Positions 1 to 32,957 of a DNA stretch of 39,946 bases are shown here, one piece after another. The notes beneath the pieces are model-generated. The model saw only the letters and a program-made list of their open reading frames with translations. It did not search any database and had not been told where the DNA came from. The DNA comes from Bacteroidaceae bacterium. Lineage in GTDB: Bacteria; Bacteroidota; Bacteroidia; Bacteroidales; Bacteroidaceae. Within the stretch, counting starts at the first letter, position 1. Each line of letters starts with the position of its first letter. The stretch is taken from assembly GCA_021443405.1 (NCBI GenBank), contig JABUUA010000002.1:1-39946 (forward strand), written 5' to 3'. The translations under genes were made by a program, and so were the position numbers.

Positions 1-2228
1 TGCTGCACGCCGTAGAGCTCGCTGTCGGGCGAGAGGCTGAGCTGGGTGGTCTCGACGGTGGACTGCAGTCCGTTGGCATAGATGGCCTGAACGCCCACGG
101 TGCGCTGGCCGAAGGCGACCTGCGGCAGCGTGGCGGAAGTGGCGGCGGTGGTGGTGGCGAGAGCGCCATCGACAAAGACGTTGTACTTCTCCACCTTGTC
201 GGCGTCGGCGCCCAACTTGGGATTGTCGATGACGAGACCGATGGCCCACGATACCTCGTTGGTGGTGGCGGATTGCTGGGCCAGCGCGTAGAGCGAGTCG
301 AACTTGGGGTCGATGGGGAGGCGGAGCAGGTCGGTGACGCCGCTGGTGCAGCGGCCGTAAACCATGCCCACCACGTTGTACGAGGCGGTGAGACTGCTCA
401 CGGTGGGAGCGACGCCCACCACGATGTCGTTCTTCAGGTCGCCGATGTTGAGCGTCTTGTCAAGCGCGATGGTGTTGAGCTGGCCGAGGGCGAGGGTCTC
501 GCTGACCTGCTGCTGGTGGAGCGTGGTGAGCGTTCCGTCGGCGGCCATCTCGTAGATGGTGAGCGTCCAGGCGAGCTGGGCCGACATGGGATAGAACTGC
601 ACGGCGCGAATCTGCTGGCCCTTGTACTGCAGCATCTCCTCGCGGTCGATGCGGATGGCCACCTCGAAGGAGTTGTCGCCGCCGCCGAAACCGACAATCT
701 CGTCGGTGGCGTCGTCGAAGTAACCCTTGGTGATGTGGTTGGTGCGGGGCGCATGCCACTGGATGGCAGCGCCTTGGAAACCGCGCTGACGGGCAAACAC
801 GGCGTAGGGCGACTGCAGGCAAGAGGTGGTCACCTCGGCGCTGGCAGCGGCCGTAGCGGGACTGGTGGTTCCGTCGGCATAAGTGGCGGCCACGCTGTAG
901 GCGTAAGTGCCGTCGGAAAGATTATTGTCGAAGAAGAGACGGCTGGTGGCGGGCACTTCGGCCACGGCGTTGCCGTCGCGATAGACGATGTACTTTTGCA
1001 CAGCCTCGGCGTTGGCGAGCGGCGCTTTCCACTCCACGCGGGCCGTCCCCTCGCCACGCAGTCCGCGGGCCTTGAGACCGCAGGGAGCGCGGTGGGTGAG
1101 TTCCTGGTCCGTCAGCACGATGGAGCTCTGGGTGTAACCCGTGGGCTCGTAGTGATAGAAGCCCATGGCCTTGGCGTCGGCCGAGATGGCATAGCCGCAC
1201 TGCACCACGGGATAGGGGAACTGCTCAGGGTCGTAGAAGACATAGGGGTCGTTGAAGAAGTCGTGAATGCCCTGCTCCTTGAAGTAGTCGGTGACGAAGT
1301 GGGGCGTTCCGTCCTTGTAGATGATGGCGCGGTTCAGTCCGTCGTCGGCCTCGTAACCGAGGATGGTCCCGTCGTCGGCCAGGGCAAAAATGTCGAAGTT
1401 GGCGGGATTGTCGCTGATGGTTCGCACGTTGGTCATCTCCTGCGTCTCCACGTCATAGACGACGTCCATGTTGGCGGCCCTGTTCAGCAGTGTGTTCTTC
1501 CAGCCGTTCCACATGAGCACTTTCTTGCCGTCGCTGGTGAACTGCTTGGCGGCACACCAGGGAGCGCCGTAGCGACTGAGCACGCGGGGCGACTCCTCGG
1601 CCAGGTTCCACACGAAGGAATAGCGGACTCCGTAGTCGTCGGTGATGTATTTCCAGCCGCCGATGTGGGAGCCGTCGCACGAAATGCAGTAGGGAACGCA
1701 GTCGGTTCCGTCGAACAAATCGCGGTAGAGCTGACCGTCCTTCCAGACCATGGGATGCAGCTTCCCTTCGATGTAGGAAGCGCCCGTCATCCAACGGCCG
1801 TCGGGCGAAATGCCGCCGGCAATGCCGCCGCCCATGGAGGCGAACAGCTCAACGCCGGGAACGAACTCGCCCACCATGGGCAACGTGTGCCAACGGTCGG
1901 TGAAGTAGCCCGGAGTCTCCACGGGAGCGCCGTTGGGCGAAATGTCGGTGGCCATGTAGTTGCCCACGACGGTTCCGTCGTTGGCAATGCCCGAGGGAAC
2001 GGAGATTTCGAGCGACGAGAGCATCTGAATCTCATCGCTTTCCAAGTTCCAGCGGAAGGCGAAGGGGTTGTAACTGTAGTCGTAATAAACACCGGCCGCC
2101 CACTTGCCGTTGGGCGAGATGTAGATAATCTGATACTCCTGCGGCGAGCGAAGCACCAGCGTTCCGCGCTCGGCCATGGCGCTCAGCGCCGAGAGCACGA
2201 GAACGAGGGACAAAAGAATGCTTTTCAT
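1..2228 (-). CDS. Secreted multidomain surface protein, 5' part only. The ORF runs off the left edge and is absent from the supplied track. It has a signal peptide, beta-propeller-type repeats (HAF/PD40-like), then FN3/Ig-like modules.
   Basis: ATG at 2228 (cat 2226-2228). My own translation is MKSILLSLVLVLSALSAMAERGTLVLRSP... and stays open for 742 codons to position 3 (...TVETTQLSLSPDSELYGVQ). Repeats: ISPNGKWAAG, IANDGTVVGNY, ISPDGRWMTG, ISCDGSHIGG, FTSDGKKVLMW, LADDGTILGY. FN3-like stretch: KYIVYRDGNAVAEVPATS...YAYSVAATYADG. No listed minus ORF uses this frame. The 696-aa plus ORF is its antisense shadow. Confidence 0.8.
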   Translation of the reverse strand, partial: MKSILLSLVLVLSALSAMAERGTLVLRSPQEYQIIYISPNGKWAAGVYYDYSYNPFAFRWNLESDEIQMLSSLEISVPSGIANDGTVVGNYMATDISPNGAPVETPGYFTDRWHTLPMVGEFVPGVELFASMGGGIAGGISPDGRWMTGASYIEGKLHPMVWKDGQLYRDLFDGTDCVPYCISCDGSHIGGWKYITDDYGVRYSFVWNLAEESPRVLSRYGAPWCAAKQFTSDGKKVLMWNGWKNTLLNRAANMDVVYDVETQEMTNVRTISDNPANFDIFALADDGTILGYEADDGLNRAIIYKDGTPHFVTDYFKEQGIHDFFNDPYVFYDPEQFPYPVVQCGYAISADAKAMGFYHYEPTGYTQSSIVLTDQELTHRAPCGLKARGLRGEGTARVEWKAPLANAEAVQKYIVYRDGNAVAEVPATSRLFFDNNLSDGTYAYSVAATYADGTTSPATAAASAEVTTSCLQSPYAVFARQRGFQGAAIQWHAPRTNHITKGYFDDATDEIVGFGGGDNSFEVAIRIDREEMLQYKGQQIRAVQFYPMSAQLAWTLTIYEMAADGTLTTLHQQQVSETLALGQLNTIALDKTLNIGDLKNDIVVGVAPTVSSLTASYNVVGMVYGRCTSGVTDLLRLPIDPKFDSLYALAQQSATTNEVSWAIGLVIDNPKLGADADKVEKYNVFVDGALATTTAATSATLPQVAFGQRTVGVQAIYANGLQSTVETTQLSLSPDSELYGVQ

Positions 2229-2240
2229 TGTCAAGTTTGT

Positions 2241-2275
2241 AAAAAAAGTTGCTCCTGCGGGGGAGGAGTTTTTTT
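2241..2275 (-). terminator. Weak hairpin with T-tracts on both strands, between the third and fourth cargo genes. Possible attenuator.
   Basis: CTCCT (2252-2256) / AGGAG (2264-2268) with a 7-nt loop. Flanked by A7 (2241-2247) and T7 (2269-2275). The stem is only 5-6 bp. Confidence 0.25.
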
Positions 2276-4673
2276 ATTGCTGAACGAATTTCTTCGAGCC
2301 TTCAATCACAATGCCGCGGTAGTTGCGACCCACGCGCTGGCCCTGCAGATTGTAACGCGGTGAGGCAGCGGCGCGGTCGGTCTCCACTTGCTGGATGGCT
2401 GTGGCGGGGGTGAACTGCAGCGGAGCGGCGCAAGTGAAGCCGCAGCGATAGTCCATGTTGTTGTCGAGTTCCACATACTGCACAATGTACTCACATTCAG
2501 CAGCGGGAGCGGGCAGACCGCAAATCCAGTCGAGCATAAATCCGTATTCATCGACCACCAGATACTTGTCGTCGAGGAACGAGAGACCCTTGGCCATGAC
2601 CACGCCGTCGCAGTAGATGTTGAAGGCGGCGAGACCGGCACGGCGGTCGGCAGCGGGCATGGCGGAGATGAAGACACTGTCGGCGTCGGCGCGCAGAATC
2701 TTGGCGGTGGGCGTGTAACCCAAGCCGGTGGTCATCATCTTGCAGACGAGGTTGGCGCTCTTCTTCCACTGACCGGCAGCGGCATTGTAGTCGTAGCGGA
2801 CGCCCGTCAGCACTTCGTCGTCGTCGGTCTGCGAATAAACCACCTGATAAAGATTCGTCTTGGTGATGTTGCCGTTGGAGCGGACCTTGTTCTGCGTGGT
2901 GGTGCTCTCGGTCAGGAAGTCGTTGCTGTCGTAAGTGTAAGTGGTCTCGACATACTGCGTGTGAGCTTCGTTCCAGACGGCCTCGGTGAGCAGACGGCCG
3001 CGCTCGTTGTAAGTGCGGTCGGCTCCCGCCTCGCGAACATATTCGGTGAGCTCGTCAGTGCCGTCGGCCGTAACGTTGTAAGTGGCGCGGCGCATCACGG
3101 TGTCGTCGCCGCCATAGAGCCAGACGGTCTTCTGGGCGGGAACACTGGCGTCGTCGAAGGTGGTCAGCTGCTCGGTGATAGAGCGGGCGTCGTAGGTCAC
3201 CGTCACATAGTCCTTGGGATTCACGGTGAGATAGTCGCTGTTGGCCTTTCCAATCGGATAGACGGCCTGCACAAGGAAGGCAAACTCCTCGCTCATTCCT
3301 TCGAGGGTCCACTCCAAAGCCTGACCGTCGGCGTTGCGATTGTCGGCAGCGACGAAGTTCTTCAGAATCACGTTGTAGCGCAAGGGCTTCAGGTCGTCGG
3401 CATACTGCGGCTCGTCCCAAGCCACGGTGACGGAGTAGTCGCCGTACTTGTCCTTCTCGGCGCCCACAACTCGGAGATTGGTGGGAGCGGCGAGCGGTGT
3501 ATTGTGAACTTCGCTGACGGGGTTGCTCACCAGCCACTCACGGGCAATCTTCCCGTCGTCGTCCAGCTCCACATACTGAGCCATATACTCGTGATAACCG
3601 TTCGGCAGACCGGTCACGCTGTAGTGAAGATTGCCGTCGGCCTCGACCTCGCTGACCGGGAGAACGACCATCGTGCGGGCGCGGTCCATCAACTTCACCG
3701 CGGCTTTGGGGTTCGACTTCACTGCGGCTGGAAGTTCGATGCAGAAGAACGTGGCGTTGTAGGCCGTGGACTCTTTCTTCTCCAGCGTGAGCACGGGAGC
3801 TTGCTGACCGGTGTAGTCGGCATATTCCTCCACCGAAGTAGTGGCGTTGTTGCTCCACATGTCCATGAAGTAAGACTGACTCTTGCGGCGGATGCGCAGG
3901 GGATTCTCGCTCTCCTTGGTGTAGAGCATGCGGTAGTTGTCGGCCTCTACGCCGTTCTCATCCACACGCTTCTCCTCATACATGGTGCAGAACCCCGTCT
4001 CGTCGTAAGTCCAATACTGAGCGCCCTTGAGCAACGTGAGGTTCTCGGGGCTGTAGTGCAACTCCGAAACCTTGTTGCCGTCGGCGTTGTAAGTAATCAC
4101 GCCCGTGTAGTTGTAAGAATCCCAACGGCCCGAGTTCTGCACTTTCACACAACGGCCCTGCTCGTCGTACTCCGTATATACAGTAGTCTCGGCGAGAGCG
4201 CTCTCCAGTGTCCAGGCGTCATAGGTATAACGCTCTTTCTTCACCAGATAGCCCTCGTCGCTGTAAGTGTAGTCCAAGCGCTGGTAACCTTCGGAATATT
4301 CGCTAACGATCTGGCCCTTATCGTCATAAGTATAGTAAGTCGTGTCTTTGTTCGACTTGAAGGCAATGTCCTCGCCGTCGTAAGGTCCATACTGCTCGCT
4401 CCACGTCTTGGTAATCAAACCGGCGGCGTTGTATTCATAAGTGGTCAGGCGACTCAGTTCATAAATGCCTGTCGCGTAGTTACGACCATAATGAGCCTTG
4501 CTGAGCAGCTGGCCCTGCTGATTGTAAAAGCAAGCGTCATAAACAGAGATAACGTCGTTGGCCGTCTGACCCATGGCGTCGCCATACACTTGGTTGTAGC
4601 GCAGACGAAGGTCTTGTGCCGAAACGCCAACCGTAGCGAGCAACGCTAAAAGTGTGAGTAGAGTTTTCTTCAT
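2274..4673 (-). CDS. T9SS-secreted protein with YD/RHS-like beta-hairpin repeats, an FN3-like module and a type-A T9SS C-terminal sorting domain.
   Basis: Signal peptide MKKTLLTLLALLATVGVSAQ. Repeats: TYEYNAAGLITKT, YYTYDDKGQIVSEY, DYTYSDEGYLVKK, TEYDEQGRCVKV, ITYNADGNKVSEL, TYTYDSNDFLTES. FN3-like stretch: APTNLRVVGAEKD...VTVAWDEP. C-terminus: SPRYNLQGQRVGRNYRGIVIEGSKKFVQQ. Confidence 0.8.
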   Translation of the reverse strand: MKKTLLTLLALLATVGVSAQDLRLRYNQVYGDAMGQTANDVISVYDACFYNQQGQLLSKAHYGRNYATGIYELSRLTTYEYNAAGLITKTWSEQYGPYDGEDIAFKSNKDTTYYTYDDKGQIVSEYSEGYQRLDYTYSDEGYLVKKERYTYDAWTLESALAETTVYTEYDEQGRCVKVQNSGRWDSYNYTGVITYNADGNKVSELHYSPENLTLLKGAQYWTYDETGFCTMYEEKRVDENGVEADNYRMLYTKESENPLRIRRKSQSYFMDMWSNNATTSVEEYADYTGQQAPVLTLEKKESTAYNATFFCIELPAAVKSNPKAAVKLMDRARTMVVLPVSEVEADGNLHYSVTGLPNGYHEYMAQYVELDDDGKIAREWLVSNPVSEVHNTPLAAPTNLRVVGAEKDKYGDYSVTVAWDEPQYADDLKPLRYNVILKNFVAADNRNADGQALEWTLEGMSEEFAFLVQAVYPIGKANSDYLTVNPKDYVTVTYDARSITEQLTTFDDASVPAQKTVWLYGGDDTVMRRATYNVTADGTDELTEYVREAGADRTYNERGRLLTEAVWNEAHTQYVETTYTYDSNDFLTESTTTQNKVRSNGNITKTNLYQVVYSQTDDDEVLTGVRYDYNAAAGQWKKSANLVCKMMTTGLGYTPTAKILRADADSVFISAMPAADRRAGLAAFNIYCDGVVMAKGLSFLDDKYLVVDEYGFMLDWICGLPAPAAECEYIVQYVELDNNMDYRCGFTCAAPLQFTPATAIQQVETDRAAASPRYNLQGQRVGRNYRGIVIEGSKKFVQQ

Positions 4674-4680
4674 AATTTTA

Positions 4681-6399
4681 TTAGTTAATTATTTTCTTTC
4701 CATTCATGATAACAATACCGCGGTAGTTGCGACCCACTCGTTGTCCTTGCAGATTATAACGAACAGCCGACGAAGCACCGCCGGTCACCGCCGTAACGCC
4801 CGTAGCCAATTGCACGGCCGCCTGCGCATCAACCTTGGCAATACTTTCCCGCGCCGTCTCCATCAGCAATTGTTTGGCAGTGGCCGTAGTGAGTGTGGGA
4901 TTGGCTTGCAACATCAGCGCCACCACACCGCTCACCACTGGAGCAGCCATCGAGGTTCCCTGCATATAGCCATAGCGAACGGTGAGGTCGTTGTAGTCGT
5001 AAGCATGTCCAGACAAGACGGTTCCGCTGTTGTCGTGACTCGACACGGCCGACAACGTAAGACAGCCGGGAGCCGTCACTTCTGGTTTAGCGCGACCGTC
5101 GGGAGTCGGCCCAACGCTTGAGAACGAACAAAGGACTCCTTCGGTCTCTCCGTCAAGAGTTCGGTCCTGACTCTCACCCAACAAACGGTAAGTAGTGCGC
5201 GTGGCATAAGCTCCCACGGAAATAATGTCGTCGGAAGTTCCACCTATTTCGCAGAGGGTCAACTGATGGTCAGCCGCGCTGAAGCCCTCAATGTTCTTGG
5301 AACTCAGCCCAAGATATACGTTGTCGGCCCACACATTCACTTCTCCCGCAGAGAGAGGAATCACCTGAAGACCAAGAGCGTAACCGTTTCGAACATTGGT
5401 AATGCGGGAAGAAATCATCACATGCAGACAACCGTTGGCGGCGTTGACCTCGGAAGCAACTAAAAGTTCGCCCTTGAGATTGCTCGCAAACGCCACGGTC
5501 TGCGCGCCGGGCTCAGCAGTATTCTCGGCACCGTTCTCAGTTCCCAATCCCTCAAACACGCTGAGAGTTTCGGTGGCAGTCTTAGTCTTGGTATTGTAAC
5601 ACAACAGTCGAACTGCAAAATTTGCACCGGGACGACCCCAGATTTCCACATCGCCCAAAGCATTCTCCGCCGTTGGAGCCGTGCGGTAATCCACAAAAGT
5701 CTGAAGAGGAGCGTCGTCGGAAGAAGCAAAAACAGCGCTGAGATGGAAATCGTCCTTATGATGATTACCCGATGAACCCACAAGCACAAGACCTTCCTGC
5801 TGAAAATCGGCAAGAGCACGGTCAAAAGCCGAAGTGCCGTCGTGCGGTCCTGCTTGATTGCCAAGACTCATATTGATGACACAAGGTTTGCCCACGGACT
5901 GAGCATATTCCCATACATAGCGAATGCCATCCAGAATATTTTGGTTGCCACGCTGGTAATCGGCCTTACTCACCAACACAATCTCTGCTTCAGGCGCAAG
6001 TCCCACAAGGCGCGAAGCCTGAGTCGTGTCGGCCCCGGCAATGATGGCTGTCACGTGACTGCCATGAGAATTATCTGAGATATCGCCCTTTGCACCGAGA
6101 ATTGCTTCGGGAGTGGTCAGTTCCACCCCATAAGAAAAACCTGCGGGAGCCTGCAAGTCCTCAGTAGCGGTTGTACCTTGTTCCCACACACGACTGATGC
6201 GCAGCGTGGTGCGGTCGGCAGAAAGAAAAGCTGGGTGTGTGTAGTCGAAACCGCCATCGATGACGCCCACCACTACCCCACTGCCTAACAAAGAAGCACG
6301 ATGCAGCGCGTCGATACCCAAGTCTCGGCGCACAAGGTCAATGGCTGAAACGCTCAGCGAGACAAGGCACAGAAGCGCCGCACACAGCAATTTTCTCAT
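4681..6399 (-). CDS. Subtilisin-family (S8) serine peptidase with a T9SS C-terminal sorting domain.
   Basis: Signal peptide MRKLLCAALLCLVSLSVSA. Catalytic motifs in D-H-S order: VGVIDGGFD, HGSHVTAIIAG, GTSMAAPVVSG. Oxyanion-like NMSLGN. C-terminus: VRYNLQGQRVGRNYRGIVIMNGKKIIN. Confidence 0.9.
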   Translation of the reverse strand: MRKLLCAALLCLVSLSVSAIDLVRRDLGIDALHRASLLGSGVVVGVIDGGFDYTHPAFLSADRTTLRISRVWEQGTTATEDLQAPAGFSYGVELTTPEAILGAKGDISDNSHGSHVTAIIAGADTTQASRLVGLAPEAEIVLVSKADYQRGNQNILDGIRYVWEYAQSVGKPCVINMSLGNQAGPHDGTSAFDRALADFQQEGLVLVGSSGNHHKDDFHLSAVFASSDDAPLQTFVDYRTAPTAENALGDVEIWGRPGANFAVRLLCYNTKTKTATETLSVFEGLGTENGAENTAEPGAQTVAFASNLKGELLVASEVNAANGCLHVMISSRITNVRNGYALGLQVIPLSAGEVNVWADNVYLGLSSKNIEGFSAADHQLTLCEIGGTSDDIISVGAYATRTTYRLLGESQDRTLDGETEGVLCSFSSVGPTPDGRAKPEVTAPGCLTLSAVSSHDNSGTVLSGHAYDYNDLTVRYGYMQGTSMAAPVVSGVVALMLQANPTLTTATAKQLLMETARESIAKVDAQAAVQLATGVTAVTGGASSAVRYNLQGQRVGRNYRGIVIMNGKKIIN

Positions 6400-8186
6400 T
6401 GTACAATCTTCTTGCCGTTAGCAATCACAATACCTTTATACTGTTCACCGACACGCTGACCAGACAAATTATAACGGACAACATTCCGAACATCGCTATT
6501 CACCGCACTAATCCCTGTTGCAGATTTCACAAGAGGAATCTGAACGCAGTTGAAAACCTCATTGCCATTGTAGTCATTCTCACTATAAGCAGCCACATAA
6601 GCCGTGAGTTTCATATTGGAGGCCTCCGTAGCAATGTTGGGTGCAAAACCTTCATAAGAAGTGCCAGCCGTGGACTCTATGCTTGCGGGCAAAGTATAAT
6701 TCGTCTCGTAGTGCAGTGTTTCTCCTTCCTTCAAACTGACGAGTCGTCCCCATGCACTACCCACAATATTGCCGCGAGCCACCGCATTGTGAACGTATCC
6801 GCTTCCGCCATTCGACTGCGGAGCAATAATGCTATCCTGCGACAACATGATGTTGAACACCGTCTGAGCACACGAAGGCAAGCGCAAGCACTCAATGTCA
6901 ACGGCAATCTTGGCTGTGTTGGTCGCAGCGTCGTAGTCACTGGTCATGTTCATCTGCACATACGGCTCACGGTCAAGCACCGACAACGCAGCCTGTTCAA
7001 TAAGAAGAGCATCAGCATTCAGGATGGGACCGGGCTTCGATGACAAGGTAGCGCAACGCCAACGATTGAGCATAACGGCAGGGGCAAAAGTACTGTTCGA
7101 CCCATAGAAAAAGCAATAAGCTCCATCGTCTTCCATCGAGAAAGCATCGGGCTCGTAACCAGCATGGTGTGTTACCTCATACACCGTCACGCCTTTACTC
7201 TCCAGAGATTCAATCGCAGTTTTCTCGGCACGATGCCCGGCAGGACAGTTGGGACAAGCCTGGCCCGTAAAACCTTCGAGCAGTATATTCTTCTGCACAT
7301 CGGCAGGATAAAAGAACACCGCTGCGGCGGTAGCATTGTCACTGGGCTCAGCATCTGCCAAAGCACCGTCGGCCGTAGCAATGTTGTCAAGCGTCACCGT
7401 TACCTGCTGATAACCCTTATCGTCCGAACGAAGTGTGGGCAACTCCACCGAGTGAGTGGCATTTGCCGCCAATGAGATGTCTGCAACACTTATGCGCTGT
7501 TGCGCTCCATCGCCGATACGGACCACTGCATCAAAAGCAGTGATGGTCTTCTGACCGAAGTTAAAGACCTCAATGGAATGTTGGTAGTCTTGTCCACCCT
7601 TGTAATAGCCCTGCTGCGTGTAAGTTTTGAGCATCAAGTCAGCGCTTGCTGGAGTCCCTTCCGCCAACACACGCACATTAGGCATACCGAGCGACATGCC
7701 GTAAGTATCTTGCCAAACACCTTCATTATAAGCAAAAGAAACATCCTTGGAATCTTGAGTCAGGTCGTAAGACAAGGCCTGATAGTTGCCGGCTTTACAC
7801 GTATAGCCCACATAGAGCGCCGGTTCATTGCCCGTCACCGTATAAGCGGCATCAAAGGCATAGTCAGCCCAAACATTGGCCTTGGCTGGCACAATGCTGG
7901 CATGGGCGAGATTAGCGCCCTCGGGAGACGTGCGCACAAAAACGTCATAATCTTGACAATTACGACTGCCCACGACTACGGAAACACCCGTAAGTTTCGC
8001 CCCCACCAAGGCCTTAACCTTATCAGCACTAAGCCGCATCATCTGGCCTTGCACATCGGCAGAACCAATGCTTGTCAAATTGTTTCTGCCACACTGTCCA
8101 TTGCTAAAGCCCACAGCCTGTTGTGCACAAACAACAGTTGTCAACGTCAGCATGAGCATCATAAAAAGGGAAAATCTACGAATCAT
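6396..8186 (-). CDS. T9SS-secreted CxxC protein, Omp28-related / thioredoxin-fold-like.
   Basis: Signal peptide MIRRFSLFMMLMLTLTTVVCAQQ. Motif LLEGFTGQACPNCPAGH. C-terminus: VVRYNLSGQRVGEQYKGIVIANGKKIVQ. Its TGA overlaps the ATG of the S8 gene (ATGA at 6396-6399). The family call is from memory of the motif only. Confidence 0.7.
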   Translation of the reverse strand: MIRRFSLFMMLMLTLTTVVCAQQAVGFSNGQCGRNNLTSIGSADVQGQMMRLSADKVKALVGAKLTGVSVVVGSRNCQDYDVFVRTSPEGANLAHASIVPAKANVWADYAFDAAYTVTGNEPALYVGYTCKAGNYQALSYDLTQDSKDVSFAYNEGVWQDTYGMSLGMPNVRVLAEGTPASADLMLKTYTQQGYYKGGQDYQHSIEVFNFGQKTITAFDAVVRIGDGAQQRISVADISLAANATHSVELPTLRSDDKGYQQVTVTLDNIATADGALADAEPSDNATAAAVFFYPADVQKNILLEGFTGQACPNCPAGHRAEKTAIESLESKGVTVYEVTHHAGYEPDAFSMEDDGAYCFFYGSNSTFAPAVMLNRWRCATLSSKPGPILNADALLIEQAALSVLDREPYVQMNMTSDYDAATNTAKIAVDIECLRLPSCAQTVFNIMLSQDSIIAPQSNGGSGYVHNAVARGNIVGSAWGRLVSLKEGETLHYETNYTLPASIESTAGTSYEGFAPNIATEASNMKLTAYVAAYSENDYNGNEVFNCVQIPLVKSATGISAVNSDVRNVVRYNLSGQRVGEQYKGIVIANGKKIVQ

Positions 8187-26468: not shown

Positions 26469-26970
26469 CAAAAAATATTCCGTTCCACCACGCGTTCCGA
26501 GCCACAATCTTGCTATGGTGCCCTGACTTTTCTGAAAGTTTAACTATATTTAACGATTCTCGTGCGTCAAGTTAAGATATCATAAAGTAAAGGCAAGTTA
26601 AAGGCAAAAGTCGTGAAGAACGCGACTTGCTTTCATTTTTTTAGTAACTTTGCATCGTCAATTGCTGGCGCGCATATCGCAATGCGGGTTTGCAGAGACG
26701 CATACATATAAAAGGCGTTCTAAGACGCTTGACTTCCTTAAAACGAGAATGTCGCAACCTCTCAAGTATATCCTGGAAGTGAAGCAACTAAGGATGTCCC
26801 TTGGGGTGTATTTACATACATCCCACTTTTGGCTAACTATTGTAGGCGGTCTGAAGTGGATGTTGTACATACATGTCGTGGGGTGTCGCGTTGCTCGTTT
26901 CAGGTATATAGGGCAATGCGACAGCCTTCGTTTTATGAAGCGGGTGACAAAGATGGCTCCACGACTCTTT

Positions 26971-27001
26971 TTTGTATGCTTTCCTTACGTTATTAACCTT
27001 G
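26971..27001 (+). promoter_or_regulatory. Near-consensus promoter candidate for the lipid cluster.
   Basis: TTTG (26971-26974)-N19-TAACCTTG (26994-27001), with one mismatch in the -7 box, about 40 nt upstream of the ATG at 27041. An exact TAACTTTG lies at 26645-26652 but has no -33 element. Confidence 0.3.
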
Positions 27002-27040
27002 CATTTGGAGCAGTGCAGCAAACATTATAAGATAGAAGCT

Positions 27041-28399: not shown

Positions 28400-29278
28400 A
28401 TGAAGAACTTGTTACAATTACTCCGCCCCCATCAATGGGTGAAGAACGTATTTGTCTTTCTGCCTTTATTCTTCAACGGTCAGTTTGGCAACGTTCGGCT
28501 GCTCGTGCAGTGCGGGTGGGCATTTATGGCCTACTGCTGTGCGGCAAGCGCGATATATTGTTTCAATGACATTTGGGACGTGGAGGCAGACCGGAAGCAT
28601 TACAAGAAGTGCTTGCGGCCCATCGCCTCTGGCGCTGTCAGCAAGACGTCGGCTTATGTGCTTATGGGCTTTATGATTCTGCTGGCCGTAGGGATCGCAA
28701 CGATGTTGTGCGGGACAGGCAGATGGTGGGTGCTGGCCGTCGTTCTGTTCTATTTCTGTTTGAACATTGCCTATTGCGTATGGTTGAAGCGCATTGCGCT
28801 CATCGACGTTTTTGTGATTGCGCTTGGTTTTGTGCTGCGAGTGATAACTGGTGGTGTGGCAACGGGCGTGTGGCTTTCTCATTGGATTCTGATTATGACT
28901 TTTTTGCTCGCGCTATTCCTTGCCTTTGCAAAGCGCCGCGACGATGTGGTGCTTTACGAAGAATCGGGAGTGCTGGCACGCAACAACATCGCTCGCTACA
29001 ATCTGAGCTTCATGAATCAAGCCATAACAATTGTCGCCACCATATCGTTGGTCGCCTACATCATGTACACCATCTCGCCGGAGGTCGTGCAACGGTTCGA
29101 CTCACCGTTCGTTTATTCCACGTCCATCTTTGTGCTGTTGGGCATACTGCGTTTCCTGCAACTTACGATAGTGGACTTGCGCAGCGGCTCGCCCACGAAA
29201 GTGTTGCTCAGCGACCGCTTCCTGCAATGTTGCATCATAGGATGGGTGCTTACCTTCATCCTTATTATATATGTATGA
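28400..29278 (+). CDS. UbiA-family prenyltransferase of the decaprenyl-phosphate 5-phosphoribosyltransferase (DPPR synthase, Rv3806c-like) type.
   Basis: N-terminus LRPHQWVKNVFVFLPLFF. Asp-rich motif NDIWDVEADRKH followed by RPIASG. About 8 hydrophobic spans. C-terminal SPTKVLLSDRFLQ. The family assignment is from remembered motifs, not from a search. Confidence 0.8.
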   Translation: MKNLLQLLRPHQWVKNVFVFLPLFFNGQFGNVRLLVQCGWAFMAYCCAASAIYCFNDIWDVEADRKHYKKCLRPIASGAVSKTSAYVLMGFMILLAVGIATMLCGTGRWWVLAVVLFYFCLNIAYCVWLKRIALIDVFVIALGFVLRVITGGVATGVWLSHWILIMTFLLALFLAFAKRRDDVVLYEESGVLARNNIARYNLSFMNQAITIVATISLVAYIMYTISPEVVQRFDSPFVYSTSIFVLLGILRFLQLTIVDLRSGSPTKVLLSDRFLQCCIIGWVLTFILIIYV

Positions 29279-29288
29279 GGAGTTGTTT

Positions 29289-29891
29289 ATGAAGAACAGC
29301 AAAACGGTGTGCGCATTCGACTTCGACGGGACATTGACCACCAAAGATACGCTGCTGGAGTTTATCCGATACGCAAAAGGAAATCTATCCTTTGTGGTGG
29401 GATTCTCGCTGTTCACGCCCTTGTTCATACTGATGAAACTCAACGTGATGCCCAACTGGAAGGTGAAGCAATGGTTGTTTTCGTGGTATTTCAAGGGGAT
29501 GCGACTGGATGATTTTAACGACGTGTGCAAACGATTTGCGCTGGACAAGAGCTCACTGCTGCGCCCTTGCGGCATGCAGTGTGTAACGAAGGCCATCGAC
29601 ACAGGGGCGGCCGTCGTGATAGTGTCGGCCAGCATCGACAACTGGGTGACACCCTTCTTCAAAGGCTTGCCCGTTGCTGTGTGCGGAACGAGCGTAGAAG
29701 TGGCCGACGGCCGATTGACAGGACGCTTTTCGTCGCCCAACTGCTACGGCGAGGAGAAAGTGCGACGACTGCTTGCGCTACATCCCGACCGCACGTCTTA
29801 TGGGTTGATTGCCTATGGGGATAGCGATGGCGACAAGGCACTTTTATCATTTGCAGACGAAGTATATTACAAACCGTTTCGGTCATGTTGA
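29289..29891 (+). CDS. HAD-IB superfamily phosphatase.
   Basis: Nucleophile motif CAFDFDGTLT. Also VVIVSAS and YGDSDGDKALL. An alternative ATG at 29271 would overlap the UbiA stop by 8 nt. The 3' end overlaps the next gene (ATGTTGA). Confidence 0.8.
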   Translation: MKNSKTVCAFDFDGTLTTKDTLLEFIRYAKGNLSFVVGFSLFTPLFILMKLNVMPNWKVKQWLFSWYFKGMRLDDFNDVCKRFALDKSSLLRPCGMQCVTKAIDTGAAVVIVSASIDNWVTPFFKGLPVAVCGTSVEVADGRLTGRFSSPNCYGEEKVRRLLALHPDRTSYGLIAYGDSDGDKALLSFADEVYYKPFRSC

Positions 29892-30238
29892 AGTATATTA
29901 TAGCACTTATCAGTATTTTGTTGGGGTCTATGGCCCAATACTTCTTGAAAGTAGGCATGTCCCACCTGCCGCAGAGCGTTTCCTTATCCGATAAAGCACT
30001 CTATGCACTCACGTCATTAGACGTATGGATAGGGCTGGCATGCTACGGGTTGAGCATGTTGTTTTGGTTGTATGTGCTTTCCCTGATGGAGTTAAGCAAG
30101 GCATATCCGCTTGTGAGTTTGGGTTATGTGTTCACACTCGCCATCGGCTATTATCTCTTGCACGAACCTGTCAACGTCTGGCGACTAGTGGGCATCGGCT
30201 TGATAGTAGCAGGCGTTTGTTTTATTGCAAAGTCGTAA
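29885..30238 (+). CDS. Small four-helix DMT/SMR-type membrane protein resembling ArnE/ArnF undecaprenyl-phosphate-sugar flippase subunits.
   Basis: 117 aa. Contains SMAQYFLKVG, LSKAYPLVSLGYVF and LLHEPVNVWRLVGIGLIVAGV. From memory, these parallel E. coli ArnE AYPMLSL and LWHEPVS. Confidence 0.65.
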   Translation: MLKYIIALISILLGSMAQYFLKVGMSHLPQSVSLSDKALYALTSLDVWIGLACYGLSMLFWLYVLSLMELSKAYPLVSLGYVFTLAIGYYLLHEPVNVWRLVGIGLIVAGVCFIAKS

Positions 30239-30407: not shown

Positions 30408-30902
30408 ATGACGCAAGATAAAATCCGCAAGACCGACGTGGCATTGGTCACCACACTGGGCGCAGGTTTCTGGCCGTGGGGGCCCGGCACCGCAGGAGCT
30501 GCCGTCGGCGTGCTGTTCTGGTGGGTGGGCGCCCTCCTGTTCCCCTACTCCACTGTATGGTGGGGCACGCTCGCAGCTATTGTCCTTGTCAACACTTTTT
30601 CCGTTCCCGCCATCAACCGCATCGAGCGTCATTGGGGCGAAGACCCCAGTCGTGTGGTCATCGACGAGACGGTGGGCGTCTGGATTTGCCTGCTCGGCGT
30701 ACCGGCCACCATGGAGTGGTACTATATCCTTGCCGCGTTCCTGCTGTTCCGTTTCTTCGACATCCTCAAGCCTTTCGGCATTCGCAAGATGGAGGCGTTC
30801 CCCGGAGGATGGGGCGTGATGCTGGACGATATTCTGTCGGGCATCTACGGCCTCGTCGTGCTACTGGCGGCGCAGGTCGTTCTTCTTTGGTTCGCCAACT
30901 GA
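30408..30902 (+). CDS. PgpA-family phosphatidylglycerophosphatase A-like lipid phosphatase. By context, a candidate phosphatidylinositol-phosphate phosphatase.
   Basis: GAGFWPWGPGTAGA, VIDETVGVW, FRFFDILKPFGIRK and GGWGVMLDDILSGIYG all match the PgpA pattern. Confidence 0.85.
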   Translation: MTQDKIRKTDVALVTTLGAGFWPWGPGTAGAAVGVLFWWVGALLFPYSTVWWGTLAAIVLVNTFSVPAINRIERHWGEDPSRVVIDETVGVWICLLGVPATMEWYYILAAFLLFRFFDILKPFGIRKMEAFPGGWGVMLDDILSGIYGLVVLLAAQVVLLWFAN

Positions 30903-30909
30903 TTACATT

Positions 30910-31338
30910 ATGGGAAAGACGCTCCGACAATTAGGCAAGGCACAGCTTTCGGCGGCGACAGCCACGGCGCTCGACTATGCGGTCACGGCCTTTTTGTTTC
31001 GTTTCGTTGGTTTTTCCTATGGCGCCAGCACCCTATGCGGCACGGCATCAGGCGGACTGCTCAACTGCGCCATCAATTACTACTGGACCTTCTCGGGCAA
31101 CAATGTGCGCAAGCGCAACGTACTGTTCAAGTACCTCGTCACGTGGTTGGTAAGCATTGTGCTGAACACCGAAGGCACGGTGTGGATGACAGCTCTGCTG
31201 GAGCACACGGGCATGCCGGCGGGGTTGTCCACACTGATGACCGCCCGCATCATCGTGTCCGTGCTGGTCGCTGTGCTGTGGAACTTCCTTGCGCAGAAAT
31301 TTTTTGTCTATCGCAGAATCAACATCAAAAAACAATAG
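30910..31338 (+). CDS. GtrA-family small membrane protein.
   Basis: 142 aa with four hydrophobic spans. Contains LLNCAINYYWTFSG and LWNFLAQKFFVYRR, typical of GtrA-like proteins. Confidence 0.75.
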   Translation: MGKTLRQLGKAQLSAATATALDYAVTAFLFRFVGFSYGASTLCGTASGGLLNCAINYYWTFSGNNVRKRNVLFKYLVTWLVSIVLNTEGTVWMTALLEHTGMPAGLSTLMTARIIVSVLVAVLWNFLAQKFFVYRRINIKKQ

Positions 31339-31342
31339 CCCT

Positions 31343-32002
31343 ATGGCAAACTTTTACTCAGTTCTTCGCGACGGCATCCAGAAAGCCGTGTACGTGCTCA
31401 TCGACAAGCCCATCGCCTTGGCCGTGAAGATAGGCCTTACGCCCAACGGCATCACCACCCTTGGTCTGCTGGGCAACATACTGGCGGCCGGACTTTTCGT
31501 GCTGGCCACGCTCTACCCCGAACATCAGTACGCCTTCATCGGTTGGGGCGGTGCCACCATCCTCCTCTCCAGCATCATGGACATGGTGGACGGGCGCATG
31601 GCACGCACCTGCGACCTGTGTTCCACGTTCGGTGCTTTCTACGACTCGGTGCTCGACCGCTATTGCGAACTGCTCACCCTTGCCGGCATCGTTTACTATT
31701 TCTTTGCGGTCGGAGAGGAATGGATGGCTCTGGTCACCCTGCTCTCGCTCATCGGCAGCATCATGGTGAGCTATGTCCGTGCTCGCGCCGAAGGTTTGGG
31801 CATTGAATGCAAAGTGGGCCTCATGCAACGTCCCGAGCGCGTGGTGCTCACTTGCTTAGGTGCTGTGCTCTGCGGCGCGCTGGCACCGGTGGTTCCCTTC
31901 CACCCTCTTTGGCTTCTCGTCACGCCGCAAATCATCATCGCTGTGCTGGCTAACATCACAGCCTTCCACCGTATTCTCCACGTAGGCAAGCAGTGCTCAT
32001 GA
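31343..32002 (+). CDS. CDP-alcohol phosphatidyltransferase, phosphatidylinositol-phosphate synthase-like subgroup.
   Basis: Signature D-x2-DG-x2-AR-x8-G-x3-D-x3-D in DMVDGRMARTCDLCSTFGAFYDSVLDRYCE. Also SYVRARAEGLG...QRPERVVL. The start MANFYSVL (ATG at 31343) lies 4 nt after the GtrA stop. Confidence 0.85.
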   Translation: MANFYSVLRDGIQKAVYVLIDKPIALAVKIGLTPNGITTLGLLGNILAAGLFVLATLYPEHQYAFIGWGGATILLSSIMDMVDGRMARTCDLCSTFGAFYDSVLDRYCELLTLAGIVYYFFAVGEEWMALVTLLSLIGSIMVSYVRARAEGLGIECKVGLMQRPERVVLTCLGAVLCGALAPVVPFHPLWLLVTPQIIIAVLANITAFHRILHVGKQCS

Positions 32003-32802
32003 AGCGATTCATACTAAGTCTCATCGGGGTGTTCGCCCCCATCCTCCTCTACGCCGTGCTCTACTTTGCCATGGGACTATGGCCGAGTTGCAACATGCCC
32101 CACATCGACGTGCGCGAACTCTACGAAGCTGAGAAGGCCATCTTTGGCATTGCCACAGAAGCGGGCACGCAGACGCCCGGCGAATGGTTTGCCGAGCACA
32201 CCTACCCCCTCGCCGACTTGTACGCCGGTTTCTCCTATCTTTGCTGGGTGCCACTGCCGGTTCTCTTCGCCTTTGTCCTGTTCTTCCGCGAAGAACGGCC
32301 CCTTGCCTTCCGTTTCATGATGGCGTTCTTAGTGGTGAACCTCATCGGATTCGCAGGCTATTACCTCCATCCCGCGGCGCCGCCATGGTATGTGATGCAG
32401 CACGGCTTCGAGGTCATCAAGGGAACGCCCGGCAATGCGGCGGGCCTCATCCGCTTCGACGAACTGGTGGGCATCCCCGTGTTCCAGAGCATCTATACGG
32501 GCAACAGCAACGTGTTCGCCGCCGTGCCCTCGCTGCATTCCGCCTATCTCCCCATCACCCTCTTCTATGCCTTGAAGAGCCGCCACGCCCGTGGCTGGCT
32601 GCCCATCATCGTGGTGGTGATGTTCGGAATCTGGTTTGCCGCCGTGTATTCTGCCCATCATTATTGCATCGACGTCCTGTTGGGCATTCTCACGGCCCTA
32701 TTTGGCGTCATTCTCTTTGAAAAAGGTTTCAAAAGTCGCACCGGGAAGGCCCTTTTCCAACGCTACGCCGACTTTTTTGCATTAAAAGCACGAAAAAAGT
32801 GA
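31999..32802 (+). CDS. PAP2-superfamily membrane enzyme of the Aur1 / inositol phosphorylceramide synthase type.
   Basis: AAPPWYV, GLIRFDELVGIPVF, NVFAAVPSLHSAY and YSAHHYCIDVLLG parallel fungal Aur1 motifs PPWY, FGAFPSLHS and THHYFVD. ATGA overlap with the preceding gene at 31999-32002. Confidence 0.8.
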   Translation: MKRFILSLIGVFAPILLYAVLYFAMGLWPSCNMPHIDVRELYEAEKAIFGIATEAGTQTPGEWFAEHTYPLADLYAGFSYLCWVPLPVLFAFVLFFREERPLAFRFMMAFLVVNLIGFAGYYLHPAAPPWYVMQHGFEVIKGTPGNAAGLIRFDELVGIPVFQSIYTGNSNVFAAVPSLHSAYLPITLFYALKSRHARGWLPIIVVVMFGIWFAAVYSAHHYCIDVLLGILTALFGVILFEKGFKSRTGKALFQRYADFFALKARKK

Positions 32803-32856: not shown

Positions 32857-32957
32857 CCACTAATATGACATCGGACGTTTCTACTGTCGATGTTAATTTT
32901 TTACTGTCGTTATAATGTACTACTGTACTGGCTCGGGAGAGCCGGTACAGTTTTTTT
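32857..32957 (+). ncRNA. Candidate small RNA of about 100 nt, bounded by the promoter at 32821-32851 and an intrinsic terminator.
   Basis: Two hairpins. ACATCG(G)AC...GTCGATGT (32868-32893) is followed by TAATTTTTT. GTACTGGCTC-GGGA-GAGCCGGTAC (32925-32948) is followed by AG-T7. The transcription start site is assumed, not observed. Confidence 0.4.
32925..32957 (+). terminator. Rho-independent terminator. It ends the lipid operon and/or the candidate sRNA.
   Basis: 10-bp stem with one G-U pair, GGGA loop, and a T7 tract at 32951-32957. Confidence 0.8.

Follow-up and report, generated by a model that had tools for sequence, protein, structure and literature searches.

What does an enzyme resembling the mycobacterial decaprenylphosphoryl-5-phosphoribose (DPPR) synthase make in a member of the Bacteroidales, and which proteins handle its product? 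This question is raised by a 39,946-nt stretch from an uncultured Bacteroidales bacterium (Bacteroidaceae, assembly GCA_021443405.1, contig JABUUA010000002.1, positions 1 to 39,946; the window hereafter), in which a UbiA-family protein is encoded together with a HAD-IB phosphatase, a small EamA/SMR-type protein of 117 aa and a large membrane protein of 445 aa. The four genes lie on the same strand: the UbiA gene starts 21 nt past the end of the 445-aa gene, the HAD gene overlaps the UbiA stop codon by 8 nt (an alternative HAD ATG is present at 29289), and the small EamA-like gene overlaps the HAD stop codon by 7 nt (ATGTTGA). They probably form one operon. An earlier note on this DNA had described the last three as overlapping, translationally coupled open reading frames (ORFs), with coordinates that proved exact; its account of the module nevertheless stopped short of the upstream 445-aa protein, a probable transferase. 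We put the probability at about 75% that the module belongs to the 'three-component' systems for extracytoplasmic pentofuranose glycosylation, with ribose as the donated sugar and a surface molecule as the acceptor.

In the route that we propose, the UbiA enzyme would move ribose-5-phosphate from phosphoribosyl pyrophosphate (PRPP) onto polyprenyl phosphate at the cytoplasmic face of the membrane. The carrier expected in a Gram-negative bacterium is undecaprenyl phosphate. Judging from gene context and fusions, the HAD-IB protein would then strip the 5-phosphate to give polyprenyl-P-beta-D-ribofuranose, and with no epimerase nearby the sugar would probably stay ribose. The 117-aa protein, probably acting as a dimer like EmrE and ArnE/F, would flip the lipid-linked sugar to the periplasmic face, where the 445-aa protein, linked to the synthase gene, may pass the ribofuranose to its acceptor, for which a glycan or glycoconjugate of the cell surface is the likeliest candidate. 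The first three of these steps (polyprenyl-P-ribose synthesis, dephosphorylation by the HAD protein and flipping by an ArnE-like protein) had already been suggested, and homology, PRPP-binding residues, gene order and fusions make them the best-supported reading of the locus.

Use of PRPP by the UbiA protein is well supported, because the protein is homologous to Rv3806c of Mycobacterium tuberculosis and has kept the contact residues of that enzyme. It matches PF01040 in Pfam (76.8 bits) and passes the NCBIfam model NF008978, 'decaprenyl-phosphate phosphoribosyltransferase' (215.2 bits against a cut-off of 207), and its alignment with Rv3806c (8J8J) runs from end to end (E = 1e-37, residues 4-286). 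The substrate contacts of Rv3806c have been defined by cryo-electron microscopy, and those made to the phosphoribose are absent from true prenyltransferase UbiA enzymes (PMC10994848). Kept in the window protein are R9 (R22 in Rv3806c), which is part of the pyrophosphate-binding K/R cluster, the 5'-phosphate contacts K15 (K28) and Y53 (Y70), the Mg2+ contacts N56 (N73) and D60 (D77), and Y125 (Y138). Two positions are substituted: Q135 of Rv3806c is N122 in the window protein and Y157 is F144, a phenylalanine at the latter position being found in some mycobacteria as well (PMC10994848). The NDxxDxxxD Mg2+/pyrophosphate motif is present (N56, D57, D60 and D64), and the listed contact residues are invariant in an alignment of 20 Bacteroidales relatives. 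Assignment of the protein as a PRPP-dependent polyprenyl-phosphate 5-phosphoribosyltransferase (PPPRS/DPPR-synthase type), as the earlier note had it, is well supported by these sequence features.

The UbiA superfamily is functionally diverse, the window protein misses the cut-off for two of the three NCBIfam models of DPPR synthase (NF008977, 211 against 234; NF008976, 159 against 474), and some sources label its relatives 4-hydroxybenzoate polyprenyltransferase. These points leave room for an ordinary prenyltransferase whose substrate is not a sugar, with the HAD and EamA proteins taking part in an unrelated small-molecule pathway. We consider such an arrangement extremely improbable, given that the phosphoribose-binding residues K15, Y53 and N56 are conserved, unlike in prenyltransferase UbiA enzymes, and that linkage to the genes of GtrA, PMT_2-like and acyltransferase-3 proteins and to polysaccharide genes is indicative of glycan chemistry.

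Homologues of the synthase are numerous (more than 7,600 protein clusters at E <= 1e-10); nearly all are from Bacteroidales, and the name given to them by NCBI is DPPR synthase. A scan that took a single genome from each species recovered at least 566 confirmed relatives. Cultured carriers include Hoylesella marshii DSM 16973, Segatella baroniae DSM 16972 and Mediterranea massiliensis. Positions 4874-5746 of a 6.6-kb human-faeces record deposited as 'Bacteriophage sp.' (MT837543.1, our H16) also encode a synthase, with 61% identity to that of the window. This record may be a mislabelled Bacteroidales fragment, or else a phage-borne seroconversion module like those mentioned by Kelly et al. (2024, PNAS, PMC11127046).

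The protein encoded next to the synthase belongs to the HAD-IB phosphatases, an assignment first made from its DFDGT nucleophile and borne out by TIGR01488 (70.8 bits against a cut-off of 45) and PF12710 (93 bits). Its catalytic motifs are intact: FDFDGT (residues 16-21; DxDxT), VSAS and GDSDGD. Among 60 relatives, D19, G20, T21, K163 and G183 are invariant, and D17, D184 and D188 are conserved in at least 90%. Its substrate is suggested by context. In 65 of 80 non-redundant related loci with enough sequence downstream of the UbiA gene, a HAD gene lies directly 3' of UbiA, and this arrangement is not a product of chance. Close relatives of the HAD protein are fused to GtrA, DUF6080 or Acyl_transf_3, and the fusions HAD-GtrA, HAD-DUF6080 and GtrA-DUF6080 join phosphatase, flippase and large membrane protein to one another. 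From this context and these fusions, we predict that the HAD protein is a polyprenyl-P-ribose-5-phosphate phosphatase. Fusions of HAD directly to UbiA, which had been proposed as a further source of evidence, do exist, but far from the window: a 477-aa Jannaschia protein encoded in a polysaccharide locus on a distant alphaproteobacterial plasmid combines PF12710 with UbiA, whereas none was found among the best 150 representatives of the closest HAD relatives.

If the phosphate is removed in this way, the identity of the sugar hinges on epimerases. Pfam scans of the large non-ribosomal ORFs of the window revealed no FAD oxidoreductase and no short-chain dehydrogenase/reductase (SDR), in line with what had been noticed from the ORFs, and DprE1-like, DprE2-like and GalE-like SDR probes taken from related loci had no tblastn match in the window at E <= 1e-3. 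The sole PAP2-superfamily gene (31993-32802) matches phosphoinositol-dihydroceramide synthase, so that neither of the features of a mycobacterial-type decaprenyl-phosphoarabinose (DPA) locus, namely a DprE1/DprE2 pair and a PAP2 gene adjoining the synthase, was found in the window by tblastn and Pfam searches. Since the window is devoid of DprE1, DprE2 and an SDR epimerase, polyprenyl-phosphate-ribofuranose is the best-supported product.

Related loci indicate where an epimerase would be expected. A GalE-like SDR gene directly follows the flippase gene in some Bacteroidales loci (L003 and L008), and a Flammeovirgaceae plasmid of the Cytophagales (L089, CP139022.1, 6998-11367) encodes the synthase along with a DprE1-like FAD_binding_4 oxidoreductase and a DprE2-like SDR, and lacks the HAD gene. 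Because these SDR and DprE1/E2-like genes lie in the same loci as the synthase, epimerases, where they are used, are clustered with the module, in agreement with Kelly et al.; together with their absence from the window, this rule supports ribose as the sugar here. The same loci can also be read the other way. An epimerase of either type encoded elsewhere in the genome would turn the donor into polyprenyl-P-arabinofuranose or -xylofuranose, and the GT136 transferase takes ribofuranose (Ribf) and xylofuranose (Xylf) donors alike. We nevertheless regard an arabinose or xylose donor as unlikely: the 40-kb window carries no epimerase gene, a DprE1-like gene occurs within 8 kb in none of 87 Bacteroidales loci, and in all the systems that Kelly et al. 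surveyed, the epimerase gene is part of the cluster (PMC11127046).

Two of the loci without a HAD gene display further peculiarities. The Flammeovirgaceae plasmid also encodes a 406-aa hypothetical protein, and its gene set corresponds to the canonical arabinose type within Bacteroidota. In L007 (3208-6331), the genes after UbiA encode a 105-aa protein, a D-2-hydroxyacid dehydrogenase and an adh_short SDR; the dehydrogenase and the SDR could constitute an alternative oxidase/reductase epimerase pair.

The 117-aa protein had been described as ArnE/ArnF-like. It passes the EamA model of Pfam (PF00892, 38.5 bits against 28.2), and ArnF and ArnE are indeed its top models in NCBIfam, but it reaches the cut-off of neither (76.6 against 99 and 45.3 against 92, respectively). 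Four hydrophobic segments are present, with a nearly balanced distribution of lysine and arginine residues. We infer that the protein is a flippase for the lipid-linked pentose, ArnE/ArnF-like although outside both curated families. Small flippase candidates are encoded downstream of HAD in other loci too; these are of the EamA type in 8 loci and of the GtrA type in 18, the latter being encoded either by a gene of their own or as a fusion with the HAD gene or DUF6080. The two types interchange at one and the same position.

The 445-aa protein is taken to be the probable transferase because it is linked to UbiA and not because of its fold. Members of its family flank UbiA in 15 distinct loci. 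The family is small (39 homologues were found), and it diverges faster than the synthase: the window proteins are 60% and 85% identical, respectively, to their counterparts in L001, the related locus used for comparison throughout. Neither Pfam nor NCBIfam has a model that matches the 445-aa protein, and a profile search of the PDB with it returned nothing; a weak PMT_2 match was seen in 2 of 40 homologues. The loop that follows helix 1 contains a nearly invariant E55 and the invariant R66 and R67, and further along the alignment R131-K132-D133, H172-E173, S230-W231 and D348/R351 are invariant or nearly so. Its topology estimate is crude and ambiguous. An AlphaFold2 model (m45fd5d648372) has a pLDDT of 88.2 and a pTM of 0.90, and, among otherwise random weak Foldseek matches, those that superpose best on it are glycosyltransferases of the GT-C fold, namely DPY19, AftA, PglB and GPI mannosyltransferase I (TM 0.23-0.36). 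The protein is a candidate GT-C-type pentofuranosyltransferase, and may represent an unclassified transferase family.

In other loci the 445-aa protein is replaced by DUF6080, by two PMT_2-like families or by other large polytopic proteins, which are unrelated at the profile level. At least six unrelated families of such proteins flank UbiA-HAD; two of them show PMT_2 (GT-C) matches below the cut-off, and alignment of the 445-aa family with five other candidate-transferase families by hhalign gave probabilities of at most 12%. We found no literature on DUF6080, nor on the use of a UbiA synthase of this kind by Bacteroidales. The surroundings of UbiA-HAD are expanded in loci of a Prevotella type (L030, L039, L048, L055, L063, L065, L066, L076, L086 and others). 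There, the gene order is an EptA/sulfatase-like protein of 600-650 aa, two Acyl_transf_3 proteins, UbiA, HAD, DUF6080 and sometimes a GT2 enzyme, with DUF6080 often fused to GtrA or HAD.

The chemistry proposed for the module is not new. The earlier note had called it a different solution to the same chemistry as in mycobacteria; the difference is real, but the pathway type was already characterised in 2024, and the window is an ordinary new example of it. The ORF15 protein of Citrobacter youngae combines a UbiA-type synthase with a HAD 'phosphoribose phosphatase' domain at its N-terminus. From PRPP it produces farnesyl-P-Ribf, and with the D18A mutation in the HAD domain the 5-phosphate form builds up (PMC11127046). 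The proposed flippase is ORF14, for which the model is an antiparallel dimer resembling EmrE and ArnE/F, and periplasmic transfer of the sugar is the task of the GT-C transferase ORF12 (GT136), the evidence being both in vitro and in vivo (PMC11127046). Epimerases (an SDR, or DprE1/E2) are optional additions inside the cluster, and the supplement of the same study describes one case in which the HAD is not fused, as well as systems that use transporters of other types; no example from Bacteroidota is mentioned in its text or supplement (PMC11127046).

The window shares with the C. youngae O1 Ribf system a UbiA synthase of the PRPP-dependent type with a HAD phosphatase, a small ArnE/F/EmrE-like protein (in the window a predicted flippase) clustered with the gene of a large polytopic protein (in the window a candidate transferase) and, as in the ribose version, the lack of an epimerase. 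It differs in that the HAD protein is encoded by a separate, translationally coupled gene instead of being an N-terminal domain, that the transferase candidate shows no detectable resemblance to known GT-C families (GT136 was left out of this comparison), and that the module lies outside an O-antigen cluster, in a Bacteroidales host.

Three other systems resemble the module in part. The first enzyme of the mycobacterial decaprenyl-phosphoarabinose pathway (Rv3806c, Rv3807c, DprE1/DprE2, Rv3789, Emb/Aft) is a full-length homologue of the window synthase with the same catalytic residues, and both pathways would use a lipid-linked pentofuranose donor outside the cytoplasm. In the window, however, DprE1/DprE2 are lacking, the phosphatase is of the HAD-IB type and not PAP2, the flippase candidate is of the EamA/SMR type and not the GtrA type, and the expected carrier is undecaprenyl instead of decaprenyl phosphate. 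The ArnT/ArnE-ArnF system for aminoarabinose modification of lipid A has a small four-helix flippase that the 117-aa protein resembles more than anything else in NCBIfam, and the module would likewise use an undecaprenyl-phosphate-linked pentose donor and a polytopic periplasmic transferase; the 117-aa protein is nonetheless below the ArnE/ArnF cut-offs and a single gene product instead of a pair, and the donor of the module would derive from PRPP, whereas that of ArnT is made from a UDP-sugar by a GT2 enzyme. Finally, O-antigen glucosylation by GtrA/GtrB/GtrV follows the same logic of synthase, flippase and GT-C enzyme, and a GtrA-family protein replaces EamA in sister loci, but its synthase is a GtrB-type GT2 enzyme using UDP-hexose, unlike the UbiA/PRPP-based synthase of the window.

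Several observations weigh against this reading of the module. A recognisable small flippase is absent from 55 of the 80 related loci. The nearest solved structures to the HAD protein are HAD-IB phosphoserine phosphatases, and the fused HAD domain of Jannaschia, the one such domain compared, aligns with it over motif I only (E = 0.005). As for the 445-aa protein, no significant profile or fold match to a GT-C enzyme was obtained, and Foldseek searches of its model against PDB and BFVD yielded no significant neighbour (best E-value 0.6). In the literature searched, we identified no ribofuranose-containing glycan of Bacteroidales.

The genes immediately downstream of the module raise the possibility of a different acceptor. 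Positions 30408-32802 (plus strand) hold an inositol-lipid cluster in the order of Bacteroides thetaiotaomicron, with orthologues of BT_1525, BT_1524, BT_1523 and BT_1522, that is, a PgpA-like phosphatidylinositol phosphate (PIP) phosphatase, a GtrA-like protein of the BT_1524 type (with no known phenotype), PIP synthase and phosphoinositol-dihydroceramide synthase. The cluster lacks the gene for inositol-phosphate synthase, the place of which is taken by the module; all these genes are on the same strand, and between module and inositol genes there is no terminator-like hairpin of more than five pairs, while a strong one follows the cluster (32922-32951). Taken at face value, this arrangement would make an inositol lipid, phosphatidylinositol or phosphoinositol-dihydroceramide, the acceptor and the product a glycolipid resembling phosphatidylinositol mannosides and lipoarabinomannan (PIM/LAM) or glycosylinositol phosphorylceramides (GIPC). 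Such an outcome is very improbable, because the adjacency is unique to the window: not one of the four inositol genes is found within 8 kb in any of 86 other UbiA loci, including the L001 orthologue with its 85%-identical synthase. Moreover, the 169-nt gap between module and inositol genes holds a -7 box of its own, 32 nt before the PgpA-like start, and the window GtrA bears no relation to the GtrAs linked with the module in other loci (E = 0.9). A conserved functional link between the module and the inositol-lipid genes was rejected on the same grounds, no other locus showing the adjacency, and a surface glycan or glycoconjugate remains the preferred acceptor of the ribofuranose.

Upstream of the module lies a second element of interest, a structured leader RNA (Table 1). 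A Bacteroidetes-type -7 box, TAACTTTG, is conserved in L001 and L002 and, from its sequence and position, probably drives both leader and module. A stem and U-run close the leader, 65 nt ahead of the first start codon (27041). Over the approximately 390 nt from the box to this codon, the window is 79.7% identical to L001 (340 nt aligned), as compared with 65-76% for the four coding genes and 45% for the region upstream of the box. Motif scans extended the leader family to at least 120 metagenomic copies, with 79 representatives below 88% identity; the median identity of pairs aligning over at least 200 nt is 73%. In 61 of 85 family members a -7 box is located 60-79 nt upstream of the first hairpin. 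No match to the leader was obtained in Rfam 15 at gathering or permissive thresholds, and a paper on capsule leaders of B. fragilis describes variable leaders with ops-like pause sites, which are not the element found here. Members of the family are non-coding, with stops in all frames and no 3-nt periodicity; a 126-aa ORF at 26650-27030 was rejected as a gene for this reason. An invertible promoter (inverton) was likewise rejected, a 20-nt inverted repeat upstream being composed of two divergent promoter boxes.

The structure of the leader was quantified for a long-range helix and for the 3' domain. The latter consists of nested helices closed by the stem and U-run; 96% of it is paired, as compared with 42-50% in slid controls, and its covariation score was matched by none of 500 shuffles. 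The long-range helix, 7 bp in length, joins the 5' and 3' halves of the leader with 99-100% pairing and covaries at two adjacent positions, the variants being CTTCGCA/TGCGAAG (41 copies), TCTCGCA/TGCGAGA (28 copies) and, in the window, TGTCGCA/TGCGACA. The next ORF on the same strand begins at a median distance of 65 nt downstream, and the genes concerned, from across Bacteroidales, are of diverse envelope types: most frequent are NusG/UpxY-like proteins of the capsule-regulator kind (8 of 83), after which come BspA leucine-rich repeat, Big_2 (Ig-like), PEGA, sulfatase and M48 proteins. In a set of 84 UbiA loci, the leader was confined to the position immediately 5' of the module; six distinct loci have it there, and between them they carry two candidate transferase families. 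The leader probably acts in cis and is not specific to the module; most simply, it is a shared cis-acting leader with a terminator. More tentatively, and with odds that we would place somewhat short of even, it may represent an undescribed class of pseudoknotted leaders that gates the module, a shared attenuation/antitermination switch for surface-structure genes; a specialised NusG paralogue would perhaps act on this RNA.

Table 1. Features of the module and its leader in the window, and copies of the leader in other loci.
Feature	Coordinates	Strand	Basis
Bacteroidetes-type -7 promoter box TAACTTTG	26645..26652	+	pattern search; consensus match only
Structured leader RNA, ~320 nt (approximate boundaries)	26655..26976	+	conservation, covariation
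Candidate pentofuranosyltransferase, 445 aa	27041..28378	+	linkage to UbiA
UbiA-family synthase, 292 aa	28400..29278	+	PF01040, NF008978
HAD-IB phosphatase, 206 aa	29271..29891	+	PF12710, TIGR01488
EamA/SMR-type small protein, 117 aa	29885..30238	+	PF00892
Leader copy, L001	585-991		
Leader copy, L043	6533-6641		
Leader copy, L057	6352-6617		
Leader copy, L047	853-956		
Leader copy, L050	575-678		
Leader copies, L091-L210			

The start of the 445-aa gene in Table 1 is a choice, in that the frame is open from a TTG at 26972 and the ATG was preferred because it fits the length of the homologues. The remainder of the window comprises a ribosomal-protein operon, secreted proteins of the type IX secretion system (T9SS) kind and housekeeping genes. 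At its left end (1-8186), long ORFs are found on both strands, and the G+C content is 0.58-0.63 over the first ~4 kb, as compared with about 0.46-0.52 in the adjacent sequence. An ORF of 799 aa on the minus strand (2274-4673) has a signal peptide and, on visual inspection, a C-terminal tail of the T9SS kind; after it come an S8 subtilase and an Omp28-like protein.

The analysis extends the pathway to Bacteroidales, with several unclassified families of probable transferases (the 445-aa family, DUF6080 and others), and indicates that a route from PRPP to lipid-linked ribofuranose is widespread in Bacteroidales of the gut, the rumen and the mouth. In public annotation, the enzyme is called 'decaprenyl-phosphate phosphoribosyltransferase' and its partners go unnamed. 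The leader RNA may prove a more original lead than the chemistry of the module, which itself points to a pentofuranose decoration on the surface molecules of Bacteroidales.

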